Source: a virus
Lineage: Duplodnaviria > Caudoviricetes
Direction: 5' to 3' (one strand)
Length of the DNA: 43,370 bases
Virus record (IMG/VR): IMGVR_UViG_3300042515_001235
Coordinates: 1-43,370 of that record
The stretch's first letter is position 1, and each line of letters begins with the position of its first letter. This document shows, piece after piece, positions 22,501-40,443 of the stretch. A model generated the notes under the pieces. The model was not told where the DNA came from, searched no databases, and was given only the letters and a program-made list of their open reading frames with translations. A program made the position numbers and the translations under genes.

Positions 22501-23328
22501 TACTCCTATACGCGGGGCATTATGCCGCTCATCGGGGACGAGCTGGTCAACCGCCCGGCAGGGCAGATGGGGCGGTCCATCAGGGCGATCACCCGCGGAT
22601 CCGAGCCGTCCGAAGACAACTTCACGCCAGAGTATCTGCGGCAGTCGGCGTCCATTCCGCTGCCGGCCGGCGGGCTCTTTGGCTTGGACGACGACTCCAA
22701 GCTGCGCCGCTATCTGACGAACATCGACTTGCCGTTTGAGTCGGTGATCAACCTCATCACGCCGGGCGTCGGCAACAACTGGCTGGAGAAGCTGGGCAAC
22801 ACGGCGTCGAAGTCGGCGCTCAACATCCTCGGCCAGACCAGCCCGCTCATTAAGGGCCCGCTGGAGCAAGTGACCAACCGCCAGTTCTACAGCGGCCGGC
22901 AGCTGTCCGATCTGTACTCCATGCTGGAGCAAACGATTGGCTCCCCAGGCCGACCGCTGGAACAGCTGGCCGTGAACCTCCCTGGTGGGAGTCGGCTGCT
23001 TGGGACAATCCGCCAGCTTGGCGATGACCGCCTGGATGCCAGCGAGAAGTACTCCAAATTCCTGGTGAACGCCCTCACCGGCCTGAAGTTCCAAGACGTT
23101 GACATGGAGCGGACCAAGCGGCTCGCCGCCAGGGACATGCTCAATGAGCTGCTGGACAGCACGCCCGGCGTCAGAACCTACGAAAACATCACCGTGCCGG
23201 AAGACATCCTGCGAGGGATGCCCGAGGAGCAGCGGAAGATGTACCTCCTCTACAAGATCATCCAGTCGCAAGCGGCGAAGAATGCCCGCGACCGGAAGAA
23301 GGCCGAAGCTCTGCTAGCTAGCGAGTAG
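19516..23328 (+). CDS. large internal virion/DNA-ejection protein
   Basis: 1270 aa at the end of the structural operon. LLDPLTY near the N-terminus and VDYS...FER...MPFYSY near the C-terminus are typical of large podovirus ejection proteins. Confidence 0.65.
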   Translation: MARSPLFDIYDPYGELDEQARLGLLPSDEEYELQGPVSLRKPTLSDLMPAEEQSSMLGRLAAAGSSGLAGLGWILDTPGSMVRGLLSEGPSKAISALWETSDDRVTGRELARQYGLAGDEDNWANFFGGLGTEVLLDPLTYGSFGLNQLLGAPAKTLAGKAAQKSGLLNDFDLYARNTLNKGSREAMREQTARSLLDRMAPEAAAEARSRFARNMGGLTDTALDEALDAPIARMNRIGLPGYEGATDLFGKTVGDYTAKLGDQLGEGLMTNPYTGPALTWFNRTVGDADVLGMKSYDRQWEAKELQALRRARQAQDRRTLGGLAMSADEALRAGGRTLKDQELSEALRVAAETPELLTPEMQSLLDMEGVRQLPEFWDRYREIAKREAEARGVPLEDMESRAGVGFMRRQQATFDSPMQPKWPEGAIPPDKRASPYTRGSKVLNASDNMGRRRKEALDVLGGTGSLNQMSLDPALQEALRAAKNEDVQKIIDDWWEANTNLPLTNSSAPAEFWDNTTLLDEAGFDGPPAGMVYRGDGSVAATRASGPSNRPFGWLDQLNDEGLPLYQAPSLPGDHPLMVQLNDLKERLQRAKAGGEIDEIVGADGSVVRPGTAEISKQIKSLQAQIGPAEREMWTGSLYSGLADFLRTLDPQHASKGIPVFGQNTFNELSQYVLGRGRVETDADFARKLLEKHVVRTPASEVVGGVNYAGPDALKAMGLTGENARDILERSLGQSLDTVSFPKEMIDDWARVVDQGRMPPELNPIAEQAQNFLRSFKTLALASPSRLARDSYSGAFAASMLNSFNLADWLAGRRMRSGDYRPLTEGMMGGMIPPRLAKGDYAELFAQDPQAALRKFLLDAGGQGLGTSTASDELLEGAANAQLRELYPGGAPPEKGELARKFYNPDRSWTEFAYDFSPFAVRGGNGNRNPLLDIFDRGAEMTDAGNRYGTYLTQARQGAAPEEAARIARLTQVDYSPEAFTDFERNVLKRWVMPFYSYTRGIMPLIGDELVNRPAGQMGRSIRAITRGSEPSEDNFTPEYLRQSASIPLPAGGLFGLDDDSKLRRYLTNIDLPFESVINLITPGVGNNWLEKLGNTASKSALNILGQTSPLIKGPLEQVTNRQFYSGRQLSDLYSMLEQTIGSPGRPLEQLAVNLPGGSRLLGTIRQLGDDRLDASEKYSKFLVNALTGLKFQDVDMERTKRLAARDMLNELLDSTPGVRTYENITVPEDILRGMPEEQRKMYLLYKIIQSQAAKNARDRKKAEALLASE

Positions 23329-24147
23329 CTCGTCTGGCACTGGCGGGGCAGTTGCGCCCTGCGAGGTCAGCTCTGCGAGCAAGAGCCTGTCGATGTACCG
23401 CTTCTTCATCGATGGATCGCGATGCCCAAGGTGTCGGCTGGCGCACTTTCCTTGAGCCTCGCAGTAGGTAGCCCCGCTGCGCCGCAGCCATTTGGTGGTT
23501 CCCCCAAGCTGCGAGCATTTGACAAGACGCCGCATCGCGTGTAGAACTCTGTCCCTGTTGGTTAGATCCCCGAAAATGAGGGGGCCAACGCGAGGGAGAG
23601 CAGAGATCGCGCGGAGGGCGTGATCATCCAGCCACGCCACATGGGGCTCGCTGGTTTTGCTTTGGGCCAGGAGGAGCCGATGGCCACGGATCTGGTCATG
23701 TCTGATCTTGAGGAGGTCGCCCAGGCGGAGCCCTGTGGAATAGGCCACCAGGATCCACGCCGGCAGGAAGACCCGGTACTCGCAGCGGCGGAAACCGCCC
23801 TGCATCTGCTGGGCCGTCGTTACCCAGCGAGCTATGCCAGCATGGTCGATGGCCGTAGGGCATGGCAGCGGAACCTTGACCCGGCGCAGCGGACGGAGTA
23901 TACTCTTGTCCAGGTAGCCCTCTTGTGCTGCGAAGCGCATGAGCGTACCCAGCATGCGGCGATGATTGTGGACCGTGGAGGGAGCAAGATGTCCGGCCGC
24001 ATTGTCCAGATAGGCGTCGATCTTGTCCGGCGTGAGATCGGAGGCAACCCAATGCAAGCGACGGCAGAGGACAACGAGCTGCTCGCGGTAGCCCGGGGAT
24101 CCGCCTACGCGGCGGCAATACCCGATGGCAAGATCCAAGACACTCAT
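23314..24147 (-). CDS. int: tyrosine recombinase / phage integrase
   Basis: LAPSTVHN core-binding motif; STGLRLGDL (Arg), QSKT (Lys), KWLRRSGAT (HxxR variant), HLGH and terminal Tyr (KRYID). Confidence 0.88.
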   Translation of the reverse strand: MSVLDLAIGYCRRVGGSPGYREQLVVLCRRLHWVASDLTPDKIDAYLDNAAGHLAPSTVHNHRRMLGTLMRFAAQEGYLDKSILRPLRRVKVPLPCPTAIDHAGIARWVTTAQQMQGGFRRCEYRVFLPAWILVAYSTGLRLGDLLKIRHDQIRGHRLLLAQSKTSEPHVAWLDDHALRAISALPRVGPLIFGDLTNRDRVLHAMRRLVKCSQLGGTTKWLRRSGATYCEAQGKCASRHLGHRDPSMKKRYIDRLLLAELTSQGATAPPVPDELLAS

Positions 24148-24339: not shown

Positions 24340-24475
24340 CTGCATCGCACCGAGGGCGTTCTGGCCCTGCTGGTGCTCGGACACCTAGCAGAAGCGCTCC
24401 GAGAGGCGTTTCCGCCCAAGCGCTAACGGATTGCCCTGCCCCAAGGACGGGGCTTTCACAAGGAGTGGTGAACAT

Positions 24476-25324
24476 ATGAACATCGACAACCTCCCGGCGA
24501 AGATCGTCGGCATGCCGGCAGCGGAGTATTTCGCGGCCACCAAGTTCGACTCCCGGTCGTTTTTGCTTCATTGCCAGCGTTACGGTGGCGAGGGCCAGCT
24601 GTGGCTGGAGAAGGGCCGCCCGCTGTTCTCGGGCAATGCCGGCACTTCGTTCGGCAGCATTTTTGACTCTGTGGTCACCGGCCTGCTGGAGGGCAAGCGG
24701 CTCTCTGACATCGTTGTCGTTGCCCCGGAGGAAGTCCTGGGCGCCAACGGCTCACGGTCGACCAAGGCTTACAAGGAATGGGCCGCAGCGCAGACGGCCA
24801 TCATCGTCACCGAGGATCAGATTCGCACCATTGAGTCCATGCTGGCTTCGATGCGTGGCAACGATTCTAGCTTCGGCCTGATGTCCGCAACGACCGAGAC
24901 GCAAGTCTCTGTGTTCTTTGAGTACCTCGGGCACAGGCTCAAGGTCCGGCCGGACGCCTGCACATCGGCGTTGTGGTGGGATCTCAAGACCACCTCGCAC
25001 ACCTGGGATCGGATCGCCAATAGCGTGATGGACTACGGCTATGCCGAACAGGCGTGGCTCTACACCGAGGGCGCAAAGTCCATCGGCTACTCGGACTTCC
25101 GAATGCCCTTTGTTTTTGTTCAGACGGTCGCGCCGTACGGCTGCCGCGTCTACACGTTGCCTGAAGAGTTGGTGGAGAGAGCCGGCCAGCGGTTGGTCGG
25201 CACCATGGAGGAGGTTCGTCTGCGTCGGTCCACGGGCAGCTACATGCCGGTGGACGCCAACGAGATCACGGAGTTGGCGATGCCGGCGTGGGCGATGAGG
25301 AAGGAGGAGGCGGTAGCGATATGA
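24476..25324 (+). CDS. RecE-like PD-(D/E)XK exonuclease (DUF3799/exonuclease VIII type)
   Basis: SD AAGGAG. Motifs FGSIF, LKVRPD, WWDLKTT, YGYAEQAWLY, FVFVQT. Located upstream of ERF. Confidence 0.85.
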   Translation: MNIDNLPAKIVGMPAAEYFAATKFDSRSFLLHCQRYGGEGQLWLEKGRPLFSGNAGTSFGSIFDSVVTGLLEGKRLSDIVVVAPEEVLGANGSRSTKAYKEWAAAQTAIIVTEDQIRTIESMLASMRGNDSSFGLMSATTETQVSVFFEYLGHRLKVRPDACTSALWWDLKTTSHTWDRIANSVMDYGYAEQAWLYTEGAKSIGYSDFRMPFVFVQTVAPYGCRVYTLPEELVERAGQRLVGTMEEVRLRRSTGSYMPVDANEITELAMPAWAMRKEEAVAI

Positions 25325-25977
25325 ACGACAGCAACATCATCATCGGGCCGAGCAGTTCACCGGAGACGGGTGAGCTGACCAAGGCGTTGGCAAAGGCGCA
25401 GGCGGATTATCCGGTTGTCGCCTATGACAGCAGCAACCCGCACTTCAAGAGTAAGTTTGCCAGCTATGCCCAGTGCTGTGATTCCCTGCGTGGCCCGCTG
25501 ACCAAGAACGGGCTGGGGCTGCCGGACTTTCGGCCGGGCATTGTCAACGGGCAGTGGGTGCTCTTGGGGACGCTACGCCACACCAGTGGCCAGTACATCC
25601 AGGGGATCGCTCCGCTGCTCATGGGCAAGCAGGACATGCAGGGCTTCGGCGCGGCGGTGACCTATGCCAAGCGCACGCTGCTGATGGCGCTGTGCGGCGG
25701 GTTCTCGGGCGAGCCGGATCTGGACGGAGAAGAATCCGCCGCTCCTGCTCGGGCTCCAGTGAGGCCCAAGGGCGGGCTGGACGAGAAGGCCCTGATCTAC
25801 CAGCAGGGTGCCATCAATGCCGTGGCCGATGCGAAGACGGCGGCGGAGGCGAAGAAATTTGTGGACACGGTTGAACTCCGCGTCCGCGAGAAGAGCGTCC
25901 CCGTGGAAGTGTTCCGCAGGGTGAAGGAAGCGTTCGATTCCAAGTGGAAGAAGGAGGTGGCGAATGGCAGGTCTTAA
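25321..25977 (+). CDS. erf: ERF-family single-strand annealing protein
   Basis: ALAKAQ, NPHFKSKFAS, LRHTSGQY, QGFGAAVTYAKR, DLDG. Confidence 0.88.
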   Translation: MNDSNIIIGPSSSPETGELTKALAKAQADYPVVAYDSSNPHFKSKFASYAQCCDSLRGPLTKNGLGLPDFRPGIVNGQWVLLGTLRHTSGQYIQGIAPLLMGKQDMQGFGAAVTYAKRTLLMALCGGFSGEPDLDGEESAAPARAPVRPKGGLDEKALIYQQGAINAVADAKTAAEAKKFVDTVELRVREKSVPVEVFRRVKEAFDSKWKKEVANGRS

Positions 25978-26308
25978 TCAGTGCAACTTCATCGGCAACC
26001 TGACCCGTGATGCAGAGACGCGGACGGTCGGTGAGGCCGAGGTGGCGAAGTACGCCATCGCGGTCAATGGTCGCAAGGACAAGGTGATGTACATCGACTG
26101 TGACCACTGGCGCGCCGGTGGCGTAATCCCGTTCCTCACCAAGGGAACCCCGGTGTTCGTAACGGGCGAGATTGAGCTTCAGAGCTGGGAGAAGGACGGG
26201 CAGACCAAGAGCAAGCTGGTGCTCAACGTACGGACCTTGCAGCTGCTGGGCGGCGGCAAGCGTCGGGAAGAGTCCGAGGTTGAGGAGTTCGCAGGCGACT
26301 TCCGTTGA
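25964..26308 (+). CDS. ssb: single-stranded DNA-binding protein
   Basis: LNQCNFIGNLTRDAE, LTKGTPVFVTGEI, WEKDGQ, acidic tail. Confidence 0.93.
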   Translation: MAGLNQCNFIGNLTRDAETRTVGEAEVAKYAIAVNGRKDKVMYIDCDHWRAGGVIPFLTKGTPVFVTGEIELQSWEKDGQTKSKLVLNVRTLQLLGGGKRREESEVEEFAGDFR

Positions 26309-29056: not shown

Positions 29057-29200
29057 ATGAGCGGGCCGCTGATTCTGCTGACCATGTGCATCTACTTCTA
29101 TGTCGGCCTTGAGCAGGGGTTCAAGGGCAACACGGCCGGGCTGATCATGTGGACCTCTTATGGGGCTGCCAACATCGGCTTATGGATGATGTCCAAATGA
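29057..29200 (+). CDS. small two-helix membrane protein (47 aa)
   Basis: Hand-translated: MSGPLILLTMCIYFYVGLEQGFKGNTAGLIMWTSYGAANIGLWMMSK. Confidence 0.65.
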   Translation: MSGPLILLTMCIYFYVGLEQGFKGNTAGLIMWTSYGAANIGLWMMSK

Positions 29201-29402: not shown

Positions 29403-29494
29403 GGCGAACGTGAAGGATCAGGAGCGGCGAACAATGAACACTGACAACACGCAGGACGCTGCCGAGCCGTCTCCTGCATCCGGTGGTTCTGTGG
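29403..29494 (-). mobile_element. attC: integron attC-like recombination site
   Basis: On the - strand: R'' CCACAGAAC, L'' GGAT[G]CAGGAG[A]CGGC, loop, L' GCCGCTCCTGATCC, R' GTTCGCC. The 14-bp arms have two extrahelical bases on one arm. Confidence 0.75.
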
Positions 29495-29640
29495 CGAGAG
29501 TTGTGCTTCCGAAGCCCCCAATGAATCCGGCGATGCTGCGAGCAGATTTTGCGTCGGGCTGGTTTTTTTGTTCCAGCCAAGTCAAAGCGGCGCTGGACGA
29601 AGCAGGCGTGTCATGGGAGATGGCCGAGTAGCCCGCAGAA
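29409..29640 (-). mobile_element. 232-bp integron-type gene cassette
   Basis: Bounded by two G/TT core sites on the - strand. The cassette-start core GTTCTGCGG is 8/9 complementary to its own R'' CCACAGAAC. Confidence 0.68.
29434..29631 (+). CDS. cassette-borne small hypothetical protein (65 aa)
   Basis: SD AGGAG (29420-29424) and the ATG lie inside the attC. The N-terminal EPSPASGGS is encoded by the attC arm. Confidence 0.65.
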   Translation: MNTDNTQDAAEPSPASGGSVARVVLPKPPMNPAMLRADFASGWFFCSSQVKAALDEAGVSWEMAE

Positions 29641-29657
29641 CACCAGCGATCAGCGGC
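29633..29657 (-). mobile_element. half attC site (L'-R' only)
   Basis: - strand GCCGCTGATCGCTGGTGTTCTGCGG has the same L'-spacer-R' geometry as the full site. No partner arm was found. Confidence 0.6.
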
Positions 29658-29674: not shown

Positions 29675-30334
29675 ATGAACGCCGACATCCCCTACCTTCA
29701 CTGCTGGGTTCGCAACTCGTTCATCTCCAGATCCGGCGGAATGGAGGAGGCGTACGCATTCGCCGTCCAATCATTCCCTGGCCGGGCGCTGGCGTTCCAT
29801 TGCATGCTGCGGAGCGGCGCACATTACCGCGGGGTGCCCATCCACGCGCTCGCCACGCGACCGATCTCCAGGGTCCGCTCTTTGGGTGATTGCCAGCTGT
29901 GGGACTGCTTTTCGTACAGGCCCATAGTAACAGTGTTTCATTACCTCCAGGGCCATGAGGCTATCTGTTACACGCAGTCTGGGGAGATCGGTGGCAGCTA
30001 CCTGTTCACTATCGACTGGCTGCCCGATGGGCCAGCTGGGTGGACGGTGATCCCCGAGCAGAATAAGTGCGGTCATGTCCTGGCCCTGGAGGACGGGAAC
30101 CTCGCCTGCCTCCCGACGAACCGGATCGCCTGGAGGGATGGGTACTGGGTTGGCCAGACCCCAGACCCGAGGTCCAGGGGTTACAAAGTCCAGACCGAGG
30201 TGTATCAGGCCGAGCATTCCGGCGCGGATGCCAGCTCCAGCGAGGATTACTGCTACAGCCCCTCCTGGCCCGCCAGGAGCCCCGAACTGACATCGGGCGA
30301 TGACCCCTACTCCCGTGACCCAAAAGTTCCGTAA
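29675..30334 (+). CDS. conserved-looking phage hypothetical protein
   Basis: SD GAGG. Motifs QLWDCFSY, YLFTIDW, KCGHVL, PTNRI. Confidence 0.75.
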   Translation: MNADIPYLHCWVRNSFISRSGGMEEAYAFAVQSFPGRALAFHCMLRSGAHYRGVPIHALATRPISRVRSLGDCQLWDCFSYRPIVTVFHYLQGHEAICYTQSGEIGGSYLFTIDWLPDGPAGWTVIPEQNKCGHVLALEDGNLACLPTNRIAWRDGYWVGQTPDPRSRGYKVQTEVYQAEHSGADASSSEDYCYSPSWPARSPELTSGDDPYSRDPKVP

Positions 30335-33853: not shown

Positions 33854-34175
33854 AGCCCTTCAGTGGTTGCTCAAGCATCGGGAAATGTTGCTCAAGGTGG
33901 TGGAGATTGCCAAGACTTTCCGCAAGGACTCCACCTACCTGGAGCAGTGGGCCGTCGCGGACGCCATCGCCAAGATCGTCCTTCCCGTCTTGGAAGCCGA
34001 GGCCGTGGCGCCCCGCCTCTTCAGCTTCGACATTGACGAGGACTACGGCGTTTCCGCCATGACGGCCGGCGCCGAGGTCGGCGCCCTTGGCATCGACTGG
34101 AAGCTGATGGTTGAGGTGATCCTGCCGATTGTCATCTCCATCCTGGAGCTGTTCGTCAAGCGTCAGGATGACTGA
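33843..34175 (+). CDS. hypothetical protein with C-terminal hydrophobic helix
   Basis: ATG 33843; IDWKLMVEVILPIVISILELF. Confidence 0.65.
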   Translation: MNIKALQWLLKHREMLLKVVEIAKTFRKDSTYLEQWAVADAIAKIVLPVLEAEAVAPRLFSFDIDEDYGVSAMTAGAEVGALGIDWKLMVEVILPIVISILELFVKRQDD

Positions 34176-35100
34176 CTACTGCCACCTCCCCCCGTACCGC
34201 GTCTCGTTCAACCAGCTCCCGCAGAAGGCGGATGGCGTGGACTGGGCGGTCGCCAGCTATGGCATCCCGTCGCTGTGGAAGTCATCGCATGGGGACGGGG
34301 TGACGGTTGCCGTCATCGATTCGGGGGTTGCGTTGCACCCTGCCTTGGATGATGTGGTCGTTGACCACAGGAACTTCACCTCCGACTCCGAGGTGCATGA
34401 TTCGCTCGGCCACGGAACGCACGTAGCCGGGACTATCGGGGCGAGGCGAGGTCTGGCCAAGGGGATAGCCCCAGGCGTCAAGATCCTGTCGCTCAAAGTC
34501 CTGGGTCATTCAGGGATGGGGAGCAACGAGGCCGTGGCCCAGGCTGTGGCACACGCCACGGAGGCCAAGGCAGACATAGTCTGCATGTCGCTTGGGTCCA
34601 CCAGACCGGACAGCCGCCTGCATGATGCCATCCGCTCGGCTCGGGCGGCGGGGATCATCCTCGTCTGCGCTGCCGGCAATGACGGTGGTGGCGTGAACTA
34701 CCCGGCTGCCTACCAGGAGACCCTGGCGGTGGGCGCCGTGGATCGCAATGGCAACCTCTGCGAGTTCTCGTCCCGGGGAAAGGAGATTTCGGTCGCCGCC
34801 CCCGGTGCGGACATCACCAGCACATGGCTGGCCAACGGGTACGCGACCATCTCCGGGACGAGCATGGCCGCGCCGTTCGTTGCCGGAGTGCTCAGTCTGT
34901 ATGTCTCGGCGGCGAAGAAGGACGGCCGGCAGATCGATGTCCACAAGGCGCTGGCAGAGACTTGCCGCGATGTTGGTGAGACCGGCCGTGATCCGATGTA
35001 CGGCTGGGGCCTGATGGACCCGCACAAGCTGTTGGCCTACGAGGTCCGCGCCTCGCAGCAGGGCGTCACCATATTCATTCCCGGAGCCAAGATCCTGTGA
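34168..35100 (+). CDS. subtilisin-family (S8) serine protease
   Basis: Catalytic triad motifs VAVIDSG, HGTHVAG and GTSMAAPFVAG, plus oxyanion AAGN. Confidence 0.95.
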   Translation: MTDYCHLPPYRVSFNQLPQKADGVDWAVASYGIPSLWKSSHGDGVTVAVIDSGVALHPALDDVVVDHRNFTSDSEVHDSLGHGTHVAGTIGARRGLAKGIAPGVKILSLKVLGHSGMGSNEAVAQAVAHATEAKADIVCMSLGSTRPDSRLHDAIRSARAAGIILVCAAGNDGGGVNYPAAYQETLAVGAVDRNGNLCEFSSRGKEISVAAPGADITSTWLANGYATISGTSMAAPFVAGVLSLYVSAAKKDGRQIDVHKALAETCRDVGETGRDPMYGWGLMDPHKLLAYEVRASQQGVTIFIPGAKIL

Positions 35101-37342: not shown

Positions 37343-37559
37343 GGTGGAGGGCTGGATGCTGATCGTCACCGTGGCGGCAGCCGTAATTCCGTGGGCGATG
37401 TCCATTCACGCCAAGGTGGCGGTCATCGCAAGCTCTGTTGAGTCGTTGCCCGAAGTTGTGGAGGAACTTCGGGAAGCCCTCATGGAGCATGAACATAGAT
37501 TGAACGAGCATGCCCAAGAGATCGCAGCTCTCAAAAAAACAGCAAGCCCTAGCAGCTGA
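37332..37559 (+). CDS. small TM plus coiled-coil protein (holin-like)
   Basis: SD GGAG; WMLIVTVAAAVIPWAM followed by a coiled coil. Confidence 0.6.
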   Translation: MTFEVEGWMLIVTVAAAVIPWAMSIHAKVAVIASSVESLPEVVEELREALMEHEHRLNEHAQEIAALKKTASPSS

Positions 37560-38109
37560 ATACATGCCGCTGGCCAGGATGCTGGCCCGCTTCTTCGTCC
37601 AGAACCGCCCCGCATGGCAGCGGTCGGCGTTCATCGAAGACCTAGAAGGCGAAGGATTCCTGGCCCTCACCAAGGCGGCCAAGACCTACGACAAGGCCCG
37701 GCTCCCCTACCCGAAGGCGTACTTCGCCCGGGCGATAATGAACTCCATGTACAAGTGGATCAAGCGAACCACTCGCATGCCTGGAGATTGGAAGGTCAGC
37801 CTGCAAGAGGCGGCCGATCTGCTGCCGGTCGTTGAGCATCCAGACTATCTGGCGATGGCGATCAGCGACTTGCCGGATGATCAAGAGCTGGCGACAGACA
37901 GGTTCCAGAAGTGCCATACCCTGCGGACTATAGCGGAAGACCACTCTCTCTCGCTGCGCGCAGCTTCTGTTCGTAGTCGGGAGCTTGCCAAGAACCTTGC
38001 GGAAGCCTTGGGAATCCGGCTTCAGCAGCGCGAATCAGGCAGCGGATGTCGGCCGGGTGGTAGTAGCCGCCCCCGGGCTTCCGGTGGCCGGCAACGCAAA
38101 GGTCGCTAG
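37510..38109 (+). CDS. sigma70-family (group 3/4-like) sigma factor
   Basis: Region 2: YMPLARMLA...EDLEGEGFLALTKAAKTYD...AYFARAIMN. Region 4 HTH: TLRTIAEDHSLS. Confidence 0.78.
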   Translation: MPKRSQLSKKQQALAAEYMPLARMLARFFVQNRPAWQRSAFIEDLEGEGFLALTKAAKTYDKARLPYPKAYFARAIMNSMYKWIKRTTRMPGDWKVSLQEAADLLPVVEHPDYLAMAISDLPDDQELATDRFQKCHTLRTIAEDHSLSLRAASVRSRELAKNLAEALGIRLQQRESGSGCRPGGSSRPRASGGRQRKGR

Positions 38110-39339: not shown

Positions 39340-40443
39340 TCACCTCCCGCACAGCGGGCAGGAACCCTGTGCCGCCGCCTGCGACCGCTGCTCCGCACTC
39401 GGTGTCGGGAACACCCTGCTGGATGGCAGGAGGGCGTTGCCCTTGCGGACGTTGGCCCACATGCCGCTGCTCATAGCACCTCCGTGGACGACGGTGTAGC
39501 CGCTGGCCTCTGCCTGGGCGTTGGCCAGCGGATCCCCCGGCACGGCAATCACGGCACGCTCACCGAACCGCTGACGCACCACGCTGGTCACGGCTTCAGT
39601 TGTGGCACGCGAATCGGCCCCGGCCTCCGCGACCCACGCCTCGCACGCCTGCTCGCTGGTGAGCGTGTTGTGCATGTGGTTCAGCACCTCTGCCTGCAAG
39701 GCTTTGAGGAATGCCGGAGTGACGTTGTCCCGGTCCATGTTCAGCGGAATCTTCTGGAGAACATTGACCCTGTACGGCATGTCGCATTCGACAACGGGAA
39801 CGCCAAGCTCCAGGATCTCGCCGCCATCTGACCCGTCGTATACCTCAACGTCGCACGTTCGCATGGTCCGGCGAAGGTTGCCATCTGGGTCGGCAATCTC
39901 CGTGGGCAGGCGGCAAGAGAATCGACACAGTGAATCCCGGCGAGGGACAGCCTCGCCGTTCAGCGTTGTGGCCACGGGAGGGATGGTCCTCCGCATGAAA
40001 TCCACGGCATCATCGTACTCGCTGCGAGTCATCCGCATGGTTGCCTGGAACTGCGTCCCCAACTCGCGGTTGGCCCGCGTTCGCCGTCGCTCGTCGCCGT
40101 CGAACACAATGCCCCCGCCGGTGCTGATGATGGACGCCTTGTGGCAGACCGACAGCACCAGCTTCTCGCCCAGGCAGAACCGCCCGCGCTTCTCCGCATC
40201 GCCGGCCCGCCGGGACTTGGCGAACATGGTGTAGGCATGAGCGAGATCATCGAACCCCTCGCCCCAGTCCTCCACCGTGATATCCACCGCAGGCCGACCG
40301 TCCACTGGCTCCATGGTGATAGACACCCTGTCGGTGCCGCTGTCCCATGCGTTACTGACCAGCTCGGCAATGGCAAAGGACTTGCCACGCCGCTCCAGGA
40401 TGGCGGCCAGCCCATCGCGATCAACGTCAAACCACTGCGTCAT
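39340..40443 (-). CDS. GHKL (HATPase_c) ATPase-domain protein
   Basis: N-box IAELVSNAWDS, G1 VEDWGEGF, G2 RGRFCLGEK, GTQF. C-terminal CPLC. Confidence 0.85.
   Translation of the reverse strand: MTQWFDVDRDGLAAILERRGKSFAIAELVSNAWDSGTDRVSITMEPVDGRPAVDITVEDWGEGFDDLAHAYTMFAKSRRAGDAEKRGRFCLGEKLVLSVCHKASIISTGGGIVFDGDERRRTRANRELGTQFQATMRMTRSEYDDAVDFMRRTIPPVATTLNGEAVPRRDSLCRFSCRLPTEIADPDGNLRRTMRTCDVEVYDGSDGGEILELGVPVVECDMPYRVNVLQKIPLNMDRDNVTPAFLKALQAEVLNHMHNTLTSEQACEAWVAEAGADSRATTEAVTSVVRQRFGERAVIAVPGDPLANAQAEASGYTVVHGGAMSSGMWANVRKGNALLPSSRVFPTPSAEQRSQAAAQGSCPLCGR

Follow-up and report, generated by a model that had tools for sequence, protein, structure and literature searches.

A reversed attC cassette carrying the start of its own gene in a phage of a likely planctomycete host, and the probable role of the host integrase

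Genes of the phage record

The window analysed here is a whole virus record of 43,370 nucleotides (43.4 kb; IMGVR_UViG_3300042515_001235), which originated from lake water and is 74% complete. PHROG matches identified genes for a terminase, a portal protein, virion proteins, an exonuclease, Erf, SSB, a helicase and RusA. The genes encoding an exonuclease VIII-like protein, an Erf-like annealing protein and SSB were located at 24431..26308 on the + strand, and their products are predicted to form the homologous recombination set of the phage. An attC cassette was found in the replication operon, amid small genes that were all on the + strand. Its neighbours were a 47-aa hydrophobic gene (29057..29200, +), which flanks a variable locus in relatives, and a downstream gene matching phrog_3704, labelled ferredoxin (29675..30334, +). 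In the cassette-free relatives L272 and L291 these flanking genes were joined directly, the phrog_3704 gene following the 47-aa gene. The cassette DNA had no match in the GenBank phage collection, where the helicase had matches at ~32% only.

Other genes on the record encoded a sigma-70 region 2 protein (37510-38109, +), a subtilase-family protease (34129-35100, +) and a HATPase-domain protein (39340-40443, -). Similar-looking hydrophobic genes of 47 aa flanked the arrays at 29057-29200 of the window and at L378:2750-2893, two loci that were otherwise unrelated.

The attC site and its hairpin

As the first-pass annotation had claimed, an attC-type site was present at 29403..29492, in bottom-strand geometry on the + strand, and it was recovered by direct reading of the sequence, by scans and by a covariance model. 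The site opened with the core GGCGAAC (29403-29409), in which AAC occupied 29407-29409. A 6-nt spacer led to the L' arm GATCAGGAGCGGC (29416-29428), and after the loop came the L'' arm (29466-29480) with T29470 and C29477 unpaired. These extrahelical bases flanked a 6-bp stem and lay on the arm opposite AAC. GTT (29486-29488) followed a 5-nt spacer. The rules given for attC sites in the sections of PMC5027507 used here are two extrahelical bases 6 bp apart opposite AAC and a length of 57-141 bp. The window site had spacers of 6 and 5 nt, within the 5-6 nt expected of unpaired attC spacers, and a length of 90 bp, and at the hairpin foot its AAC paired with GTT. Since AAC came first and the far arm bore the extrahelical bases, which were 6 bp apart with T as the outer one, the + strand of the window corresponds to the attC bottom strand under the same rules (PMC5027507).

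Two departures from the usual form were noted. The inner (first) extrahelical base was C instead of the usual G; C was also found at this place in 154 of 158 genome sites, which were collected by a search seeded with a pattern containing C. The cores GAAC/GTTC departed from the class 1 consensus RYYYAAC/GTTRRRY, with GTTC in place of GTTR, and so did 59 of 73 genome sites in the family found beside intI. AAC and GTT were invariant in all 73 aligned genome sites, the scan having required both triplets.

A strict geometric scan returned the 29403-29492 site alone from the window and had no match at ≤1 mismatch in 30 shuffles; a looser scan found no site in 10 shuffles. The covariance search that had been proposed as a check was carried out with a model built from 73 Planctomycetota-bin sites, and the window site scored 57.6 bits (E 1.9e-13) on the + strand only, the next best hit reaching 11.4. 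This score is partly circular, because the seed pattern of the host model was taken from the window site. A chance origin of the site was ruled out by the shuffles together with the covariance score. A search of Rfam with the site gave no match at E up to 1.

The stability of the hairpin was ordinary compared with shuffles (z 0.19). When folded as DNA within 97 nt of context, the sequence had another structure at minimum energy, and its centroid was the attC fold. The attC fold had a probability of ~0.5 for the 90-nt window site, and the medians were 0.58 for viral sites and 0.78 for genome bins.

The 232-bp cassette and its gene

A cassette of 232 bp (29409..29640, +) lay between two predicted AA|C crossover points, and it was delimited by the complementarity of its ends and by the occurrence of the same unit beside other neighbours. 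The cassette end at 29633-29641 was complementary to 29486-29494 at 8 of 9 positions. AGGAG, a Shine-Dalgarno-like motif, was found inside the L' stem (29420-29424, +), and an ATG in the hairpin loop (29434, +) opened a 65-aa ORF (29434..29631, +; stop at 29629-29631). The first 19 residues of this ORF were encoded by attC itself. In-frame GTG codons at 29410 and 29362 were possible alternative starts. AGGAG was paired within the predicted RNA hairpin, and no sigma-70-like promoter was found on the + strand at or near the hairpin. Thus the main observations of the first-pass annotation were borne out by the sequence: the 232-bp unit with a second half site, the 8/9 complementarity, a gene that is reversed with respect to its attC and co-directional with the operon, and a ribosome-binding motif, ATG and first 19 codons that lie inside the attC.

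The 65-aa protein had no match in PHROG or Pfam. It had three full-length relatives with 70-85% identity, plus near-identical entries, and in the ESM Atlas no match above 0.83. A metagenome scan with the protein gave one weak match, which was apparently unrelated. We take this protein to be a dispensable early accessory protein.

The half site (29635..29657, +; 8.2 bits, E 4.4) was the left arm (R'-spacer-L') of a second attC without its partner arm, and it continued into the region where the following gene has its ribosome-binding site. An allele of it preceded the same downstream gene in run X2. The array of the window is a decayed one, having one full site, one half site and no attI of the class searched. 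A CALIN comprises at least two attC sites without intI; the window held a single full site, and the relatives G044, G048, G049, G050 and G051 held CALINs. The fusion of a broken attC to the ribosome-binding region of the next gene resembles the fused cassettes reviewed in PMC8876359, in the part of that review used here. At L263:4654, at L278:7160 and at 29635-29657 of the window, a left arm of attC had been joined to unrelated sequence downstream. Such arms were apparently kept as translation leaders after deletion.

Related sites in viruses and Planctomycetota

The exact pattern taken from the window site matched ~210 viral stretches, 127 of which were fetched, and ~260 genome stretches (124 loci). 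Planctomycetota titles were found on 90 of the 124 genome loci, where we took Gemmataceae, Zavarzinella, Fuerstiella and Kuenenia to belong to Planctomycetota. IntI above the TIGR02249 cut-off was encoded in 3 of 5, 3 of 5 and 22 of 151 genomes carrying the pattern. The intI genes of L253, L254 and L332 were directed outward from their arrays. The first cassette of L332 started just past the GTT of attI and ended at the next site, which is the canonical polarity. The intI, the attI and the canonical first cassette of these three loci fixed the polarity of the host sites, so that the strand carrying GAAC-N6-GATCAG is the bottom strand. The alignment took in 73 of 74 selected Planctomycetota-bin sites, and the aligned sites covaried, with 93% of cells paired and double changes in 14 of 19 pairs.

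The host of the phage is likely a planctomycete, judging from the family of attC sites that it shares with Planctomycetota. Relatives of the terminase, at 32-42%, were found in 4 of 301 genomes and add little to this assignment. A planctomycete host family with IntI had been suggested earlier, and the presence of the site family beside intI in Planctomycetota supports it. The viral search for GAAC-type sites that the first-pass annotation had proposed gave the ~210 matching stretches, and variable arrays were seen in relatives found through a flanking gene.

The cargo of the arrays was diverse. Altogether 207 cassette ORFs fell into 176 clusters, with a median length of 88 aa. In a PHROG scan of 100 cargo proteins, 69 had no match, 12 matched phrog_924-type unknown families, 9 were DNA methyltransferases, 2 were HNH proteins and 1 was a PAPS reductase. 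Viral cassette proteins matched few genome-bin loci only. The largest array seen, at G041:C1:86746-94498 on a 97-kb virus record, had 14 attC sites in 8 kb. In L071:3085-3474 and in L019 a cassette protein of ~150 aa combined an HNH-like N-terminus with a stretch matching phrog_95, labelled integrase.

Orientation of the cassettes and gene starts inside attC

Clean cassettes were defined as adjacent sites <1.3 kb apart with ends at least 5/6 complementary, and the longer ORF of each was scored. This ORF was on the bottom strand (reversed) in 78 of 86 clean viral cassettes, whereas it was on the top strand (canonical) in 33 of 49 genome-bin cassettes, among which some bin contigs look phage-derived. 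All multi-site viral loci (68 of 68) had their sites on the same strand. An ORF was launched by ATG and an SD-like 4-mer from 127 of 196 long viral sites compared with 10 of 192 bin sites. The launched ORFs crossed the hairpin foot in one frame in 143 of 154 cases, which makes the hairpin heads interchangeable. AAC was located 1 nt (54 ends) or 6 nt (36 ends) past the stop among 137 cassette ends that were located; 85 sites gave no end.

A canonical cassette has a top-strand gene with attC at its 3' end, and the cassette of the window has the other arrangement. It is a real attC cassette in a reversed, start-bearing form, and one decayed member of a large phage pool. Not all attC clusters of phages are reversed: the three sites found by scan in phage TJE1 were canonical. 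An attC scan of phage P12002L found no site. In TJE1 (L302:248-289 and 1020-1071) annotated genes ended inside canonical attC, so that attC encoded their C-termini. A literature search, with most subscription journals outside it, returned no paper on reversed or start-bearing attC in phages.

attI-like heads

Many arrays ended, at the attI side, in a conserved sequence that forms no hairpin and has TTAT motifs repeated ahead of GTT. The first-pass annotation had overlooked these attI-like heads of related arrays. The pattern of the commonest class matched 24 viral stretches; an attC chain was found on the array side in 19 of the 21 matches with room for one, and on the other side in none. Among 12 contigs outside the first scan, which had not been used to derive the head motif, 7 of 9 with room had an array-side attC chain.

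The second head class (L006, L113, L282 and L378) closely resembled the attI next to the L332 intI, and the last 17 bases of the first class were largely common with L361. The class 1 profile scored most host intI-upstream regions poorly; L356 (11.0) and L361 (5.3) look alike to it by eye, while L258 (7.0) does not. A profile search of the window for the class 1 attI-like motif found none, and heads were present in the relatives L262 and L282. Heads of the two classes in phages without intI were seen, for example, at L262:4642-4720, in L306-L328 and at L378:2667-2745.

Movement of the cassettes

Relatives identified through the flanking gene carried from none to several cassettes at the locus, and 8 of 20 records had at least one site. 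The cassette of the window recurred in L378/L379, in the array of another phage whose flanks otherwise share nothing with the window. The match to L378 started at 29406, the gene differed at 1 of 146 positions, and immediately past the final AAC a different neighbour began, with another attC. A contig carrying the cassette to 29643 and then entering a different attC was seen in runs X3 and X7, and run X5 carried the window's form of the cassette. The cassette has at least three right-hand neighbours. Run X2, from which the window may derive, was not treated as independent, and X3 and X7 may be one campaign. Contigs of 6 runs, an assembly form that drops rare variants, contained no joint that skips the cassette or closes it on itself (empty site or circle). 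The earlier proposal of a shared phage pool agrees with the recurrence in L378/L379, and that of a variable locus with the relatives, including L272 and L291.

These data bear on the reading that the site is an inactive relic of a host integron, acquired on a single occasion, with an incidental ORF and nothing moving. The window, with its one full site, broken second site, lack of an attI-like motif of the class searched and protein of no known family, would suit such a history. However, one cassette with at least three right-hand neighbours does not look immobile, and neither do 176 clusters among 207 cassette ORFs with few genome-bin protein matches. Host cassettes also face the opposite way, and the occurrence in L378 already weakens this reading. 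We regard a dead relic as very improbable.

Of 130 adjacent viral pairs, 86 had ends with complementarity of 5/6 or better, compared with 11.6% of random pairs. The first-pass annotation had read such complementarity as the signature of an excised circle; the complementarity is present, but by itself it does not place the crossover, which we placed by linkage. Among 17 pairs sharing an upstream gene, 12 diverged 0-5 nt after AAC and 5 broke 12-35 nt into the hairpin body. The joints clustered at the AAC cut point. The hairpin body was the same within 1 mismatch in 26 of 52 pairs sharing a downstream gene, against 88 of 25,241 unrelated pairs, and 21 of the 26 derived from one cassette. The remaining pairs with the same downstream gene differed at 2-5 body places (9 of 52) or at more (17 of 52). 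The cassette behind those 21 pairs was present in seven identical copies with seven different neighbours in front. By family, the spacer after AAC was common to 7 of 15 sampled pairs.

There are signs that homologous recombination operates within the hairpin bodies as well. Between the window and L378, 10 of 43 spacer and loop positions differed compared with 1 of 146 in the gene, which points to a hairpin head swapped by homologous recombination. It could be argued that such exchange is the whole story, the hairpins being of host attC descent but now serving only as repeated start modules, while Erf, exonuclease and SSB shuffle the genes in the manner of PeSLs (PMC2839356, in the part used here) and IntI has no present part. 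The presence of the three recombination genes in the same operon, the mosaic hairpin bodies and the common frame of 143 of 154 ORFs, with its interchangeable heads, fit this explanation. Against it, 12 of 17 pairs break no more than 5 nt from AAC, homologous recombination needs neither complementary cassette ends nor attI-like heads, and the extrahelical geometry is retained even in mini sites of 41-50 nt. We therefore consider shuffling by homologous recombination alone to be unlikely, although it is the most serious of the alternatives.

Candidate recombinases

The statement of the first-pass annotation that no IntI is present in the window was correct; the recombinase encoded there lacks the IntI insertion and has no TIGR02249 match. 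That recombinase, a tyrosine recombinase of 277 aa (23314..24147, -; PF00589, 27.7 bits; phrog_1, E 2e-23), had itself been overlooked. Its gene is divergent from the recombination operon, and the lack of the IntI insertion was read from an alignment with IntI in which only valid rows were used (10 of 30 loci gave a row; L388, L401 and L352 were left out). The family had 245 relatives. The product is likely the prophage integrase. This recombinase, conserved across the phage family, has W where the first catalytic-motif His is expected (WLRR).

PF00589 genes were found in 32 of 50 records searched and in 16 of 18 near-complete ones. This distribution, together with the conservation of the family, would be expected if the small recombinase of the phage itself recombined the hairpins in a self-sufficient system. 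Yet the enzyme lacks the IntI insertion, its gene is at least 5 kb from the array and not at attI, and the sites match those beside host intI. In addition, a tyrosine recombinase gene was present in relatives without a full attC (G046, G047, G052 and G054) and was not found in the complete 204-kb attC-bearing record G029. A system driven by this enzyme is thus improbable. IntI above the cut-off was found in none of 49 virus records, 17 of which were near complete. Three viral contigs (L338, L342 and L335) encoded IntI relatives together with a site resembling the window's family.

A host integrase acting in trans

In our judgement the 232-bp unit is probably an integron-type cassette set backwards, with attC in front supplying the ribosome-binding site, the start and 19 codons, and cut and re-inserted at AA|C by IntI supplied in trans by the host, likely a planctomycete. 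A broader reading, to which we also incline but less firmly, is that phages of planctomycetes run an integrase-less, mirror-image integron. It would consist of an attI head followed by backwards attC cassettes in the early operon, served by host IntI in trans, with attC as a universal in-frame start module that has shrunk to <50 bp in some cassettes, and its pool would be shared by unrelated phages and separate from the host cassettes.

Under action of host IntI, the enzyme would fold and cut the bottom strand at AA|C, and the released units would be re-inserted at attC or attI. If the 277-aa recombinase is a prophage integrase, the phage would be temperate, and its arrays would thereby be exposed to the host IntI. 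Because the gene is coded on the bottom strand of attC, any unit that enters at attC or attI would read with the early operon of the phage and would need no promoter. With the stop of one cassette at the AAC of the next, the terminating ribosome might melt the hairpin in which the next ribosome-binding site is hidden. The Erf/exonuclease system probably also swaps hairpin heads by homologous recombination between similar bodies, and the shared frame would make such swaps harmless. The bottom strands of attC recombine more on the lagging-strand template (PMC5371416, as far as used here), and co-directional phage genes would put the bottom strand on that template if the operon runs with replication.

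Comparison with known systems

Integrons are regarded as tools of bacteria and often contain anti-phage genes. If the arrays described here are live, phages use the host integrase for their own accessory genes, including DNA methyltransferases (9 of 100 cargo proteins). The phage cassettes share with Planctomycetota chromosomal integrons the core triplet, the spacers, the extrahelical bases 6 bp apart, the length, the end complementarity and the consensus found beside intI. They differ in that the gene is on the bottom strand with attC in front of its 5' end, the phage has neither intI nor Pc, and mini sites occur. Phage-type genes that lie between attC sites and run in the opposite polarity are also new material on how cassettes are made.

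Clusters of attC in phages have already been published and were reported as rare: in the sections used here, Qi 2023 (PMC9892861) describes 17 phage CALINs in 10,705 genomes and recombination by IntI1 of 5 of 6 tested phage sites. As in our arrays, those CALINs have attC-bounded genes without intI and DNA methyltransferases in the cargo; reversed genes, in-attC starts and Planctomycetota phages, all found here, are not described in those sections (PMC9892861). Unlike the canonical sites of TJE1, the present arrays have reversed genes starting in the site and often an attI-like end. SALINs resemble the window in having a single full attC, one gene and no intI, but according to the part of bioRxiv 2022.09.11.507474 used here they are insertions in bacterial genomes at short GWT sites, whereas the window cassette abuts an attC remnant and relatives have arrays there. 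The PeSLs of T4-type phages (Arbiol 2010, PMC2839356) are likewise repeated stem-loops before accessory genes that mediate shuffling. In the text drawn on, PeSLs carry a promoter and a terminator (PMC2839356), while the window site has the anatomy of attC and no sigma-70-like promoter.

Engineered protein-coding attC sites encode a peptide and yet recombine (Nivina 2020, PMC7439510), and short ORFs within attC can couple translation (PMC8876359), both as given in the sections used here. The former sites are engineered and the latter ORFs are short and on the top strand, whereas here a natural attC encodes the N-terminus of the cargo on the bottom strand. An attC that encodes a ribosome-binding site and an N-terminus is, on the portion of PMC7439510 used, a natural form of that engineering.

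Mini attC sites with an AAC-to-GTT length of 41-50 nt were found 36 times in viruses, for example at L284:7987-8035, L282:6867-6917 and L378:2394-2443. They kept the extrahelical geometry, and their ribosome-binding site came after the hairpin and not inside it. With cores they measured ~49-58 bp, so that the shortest fall under the 57-141 bp range given for attC in the consulted part of PMC5027507, and they test the lower size limit of attC.
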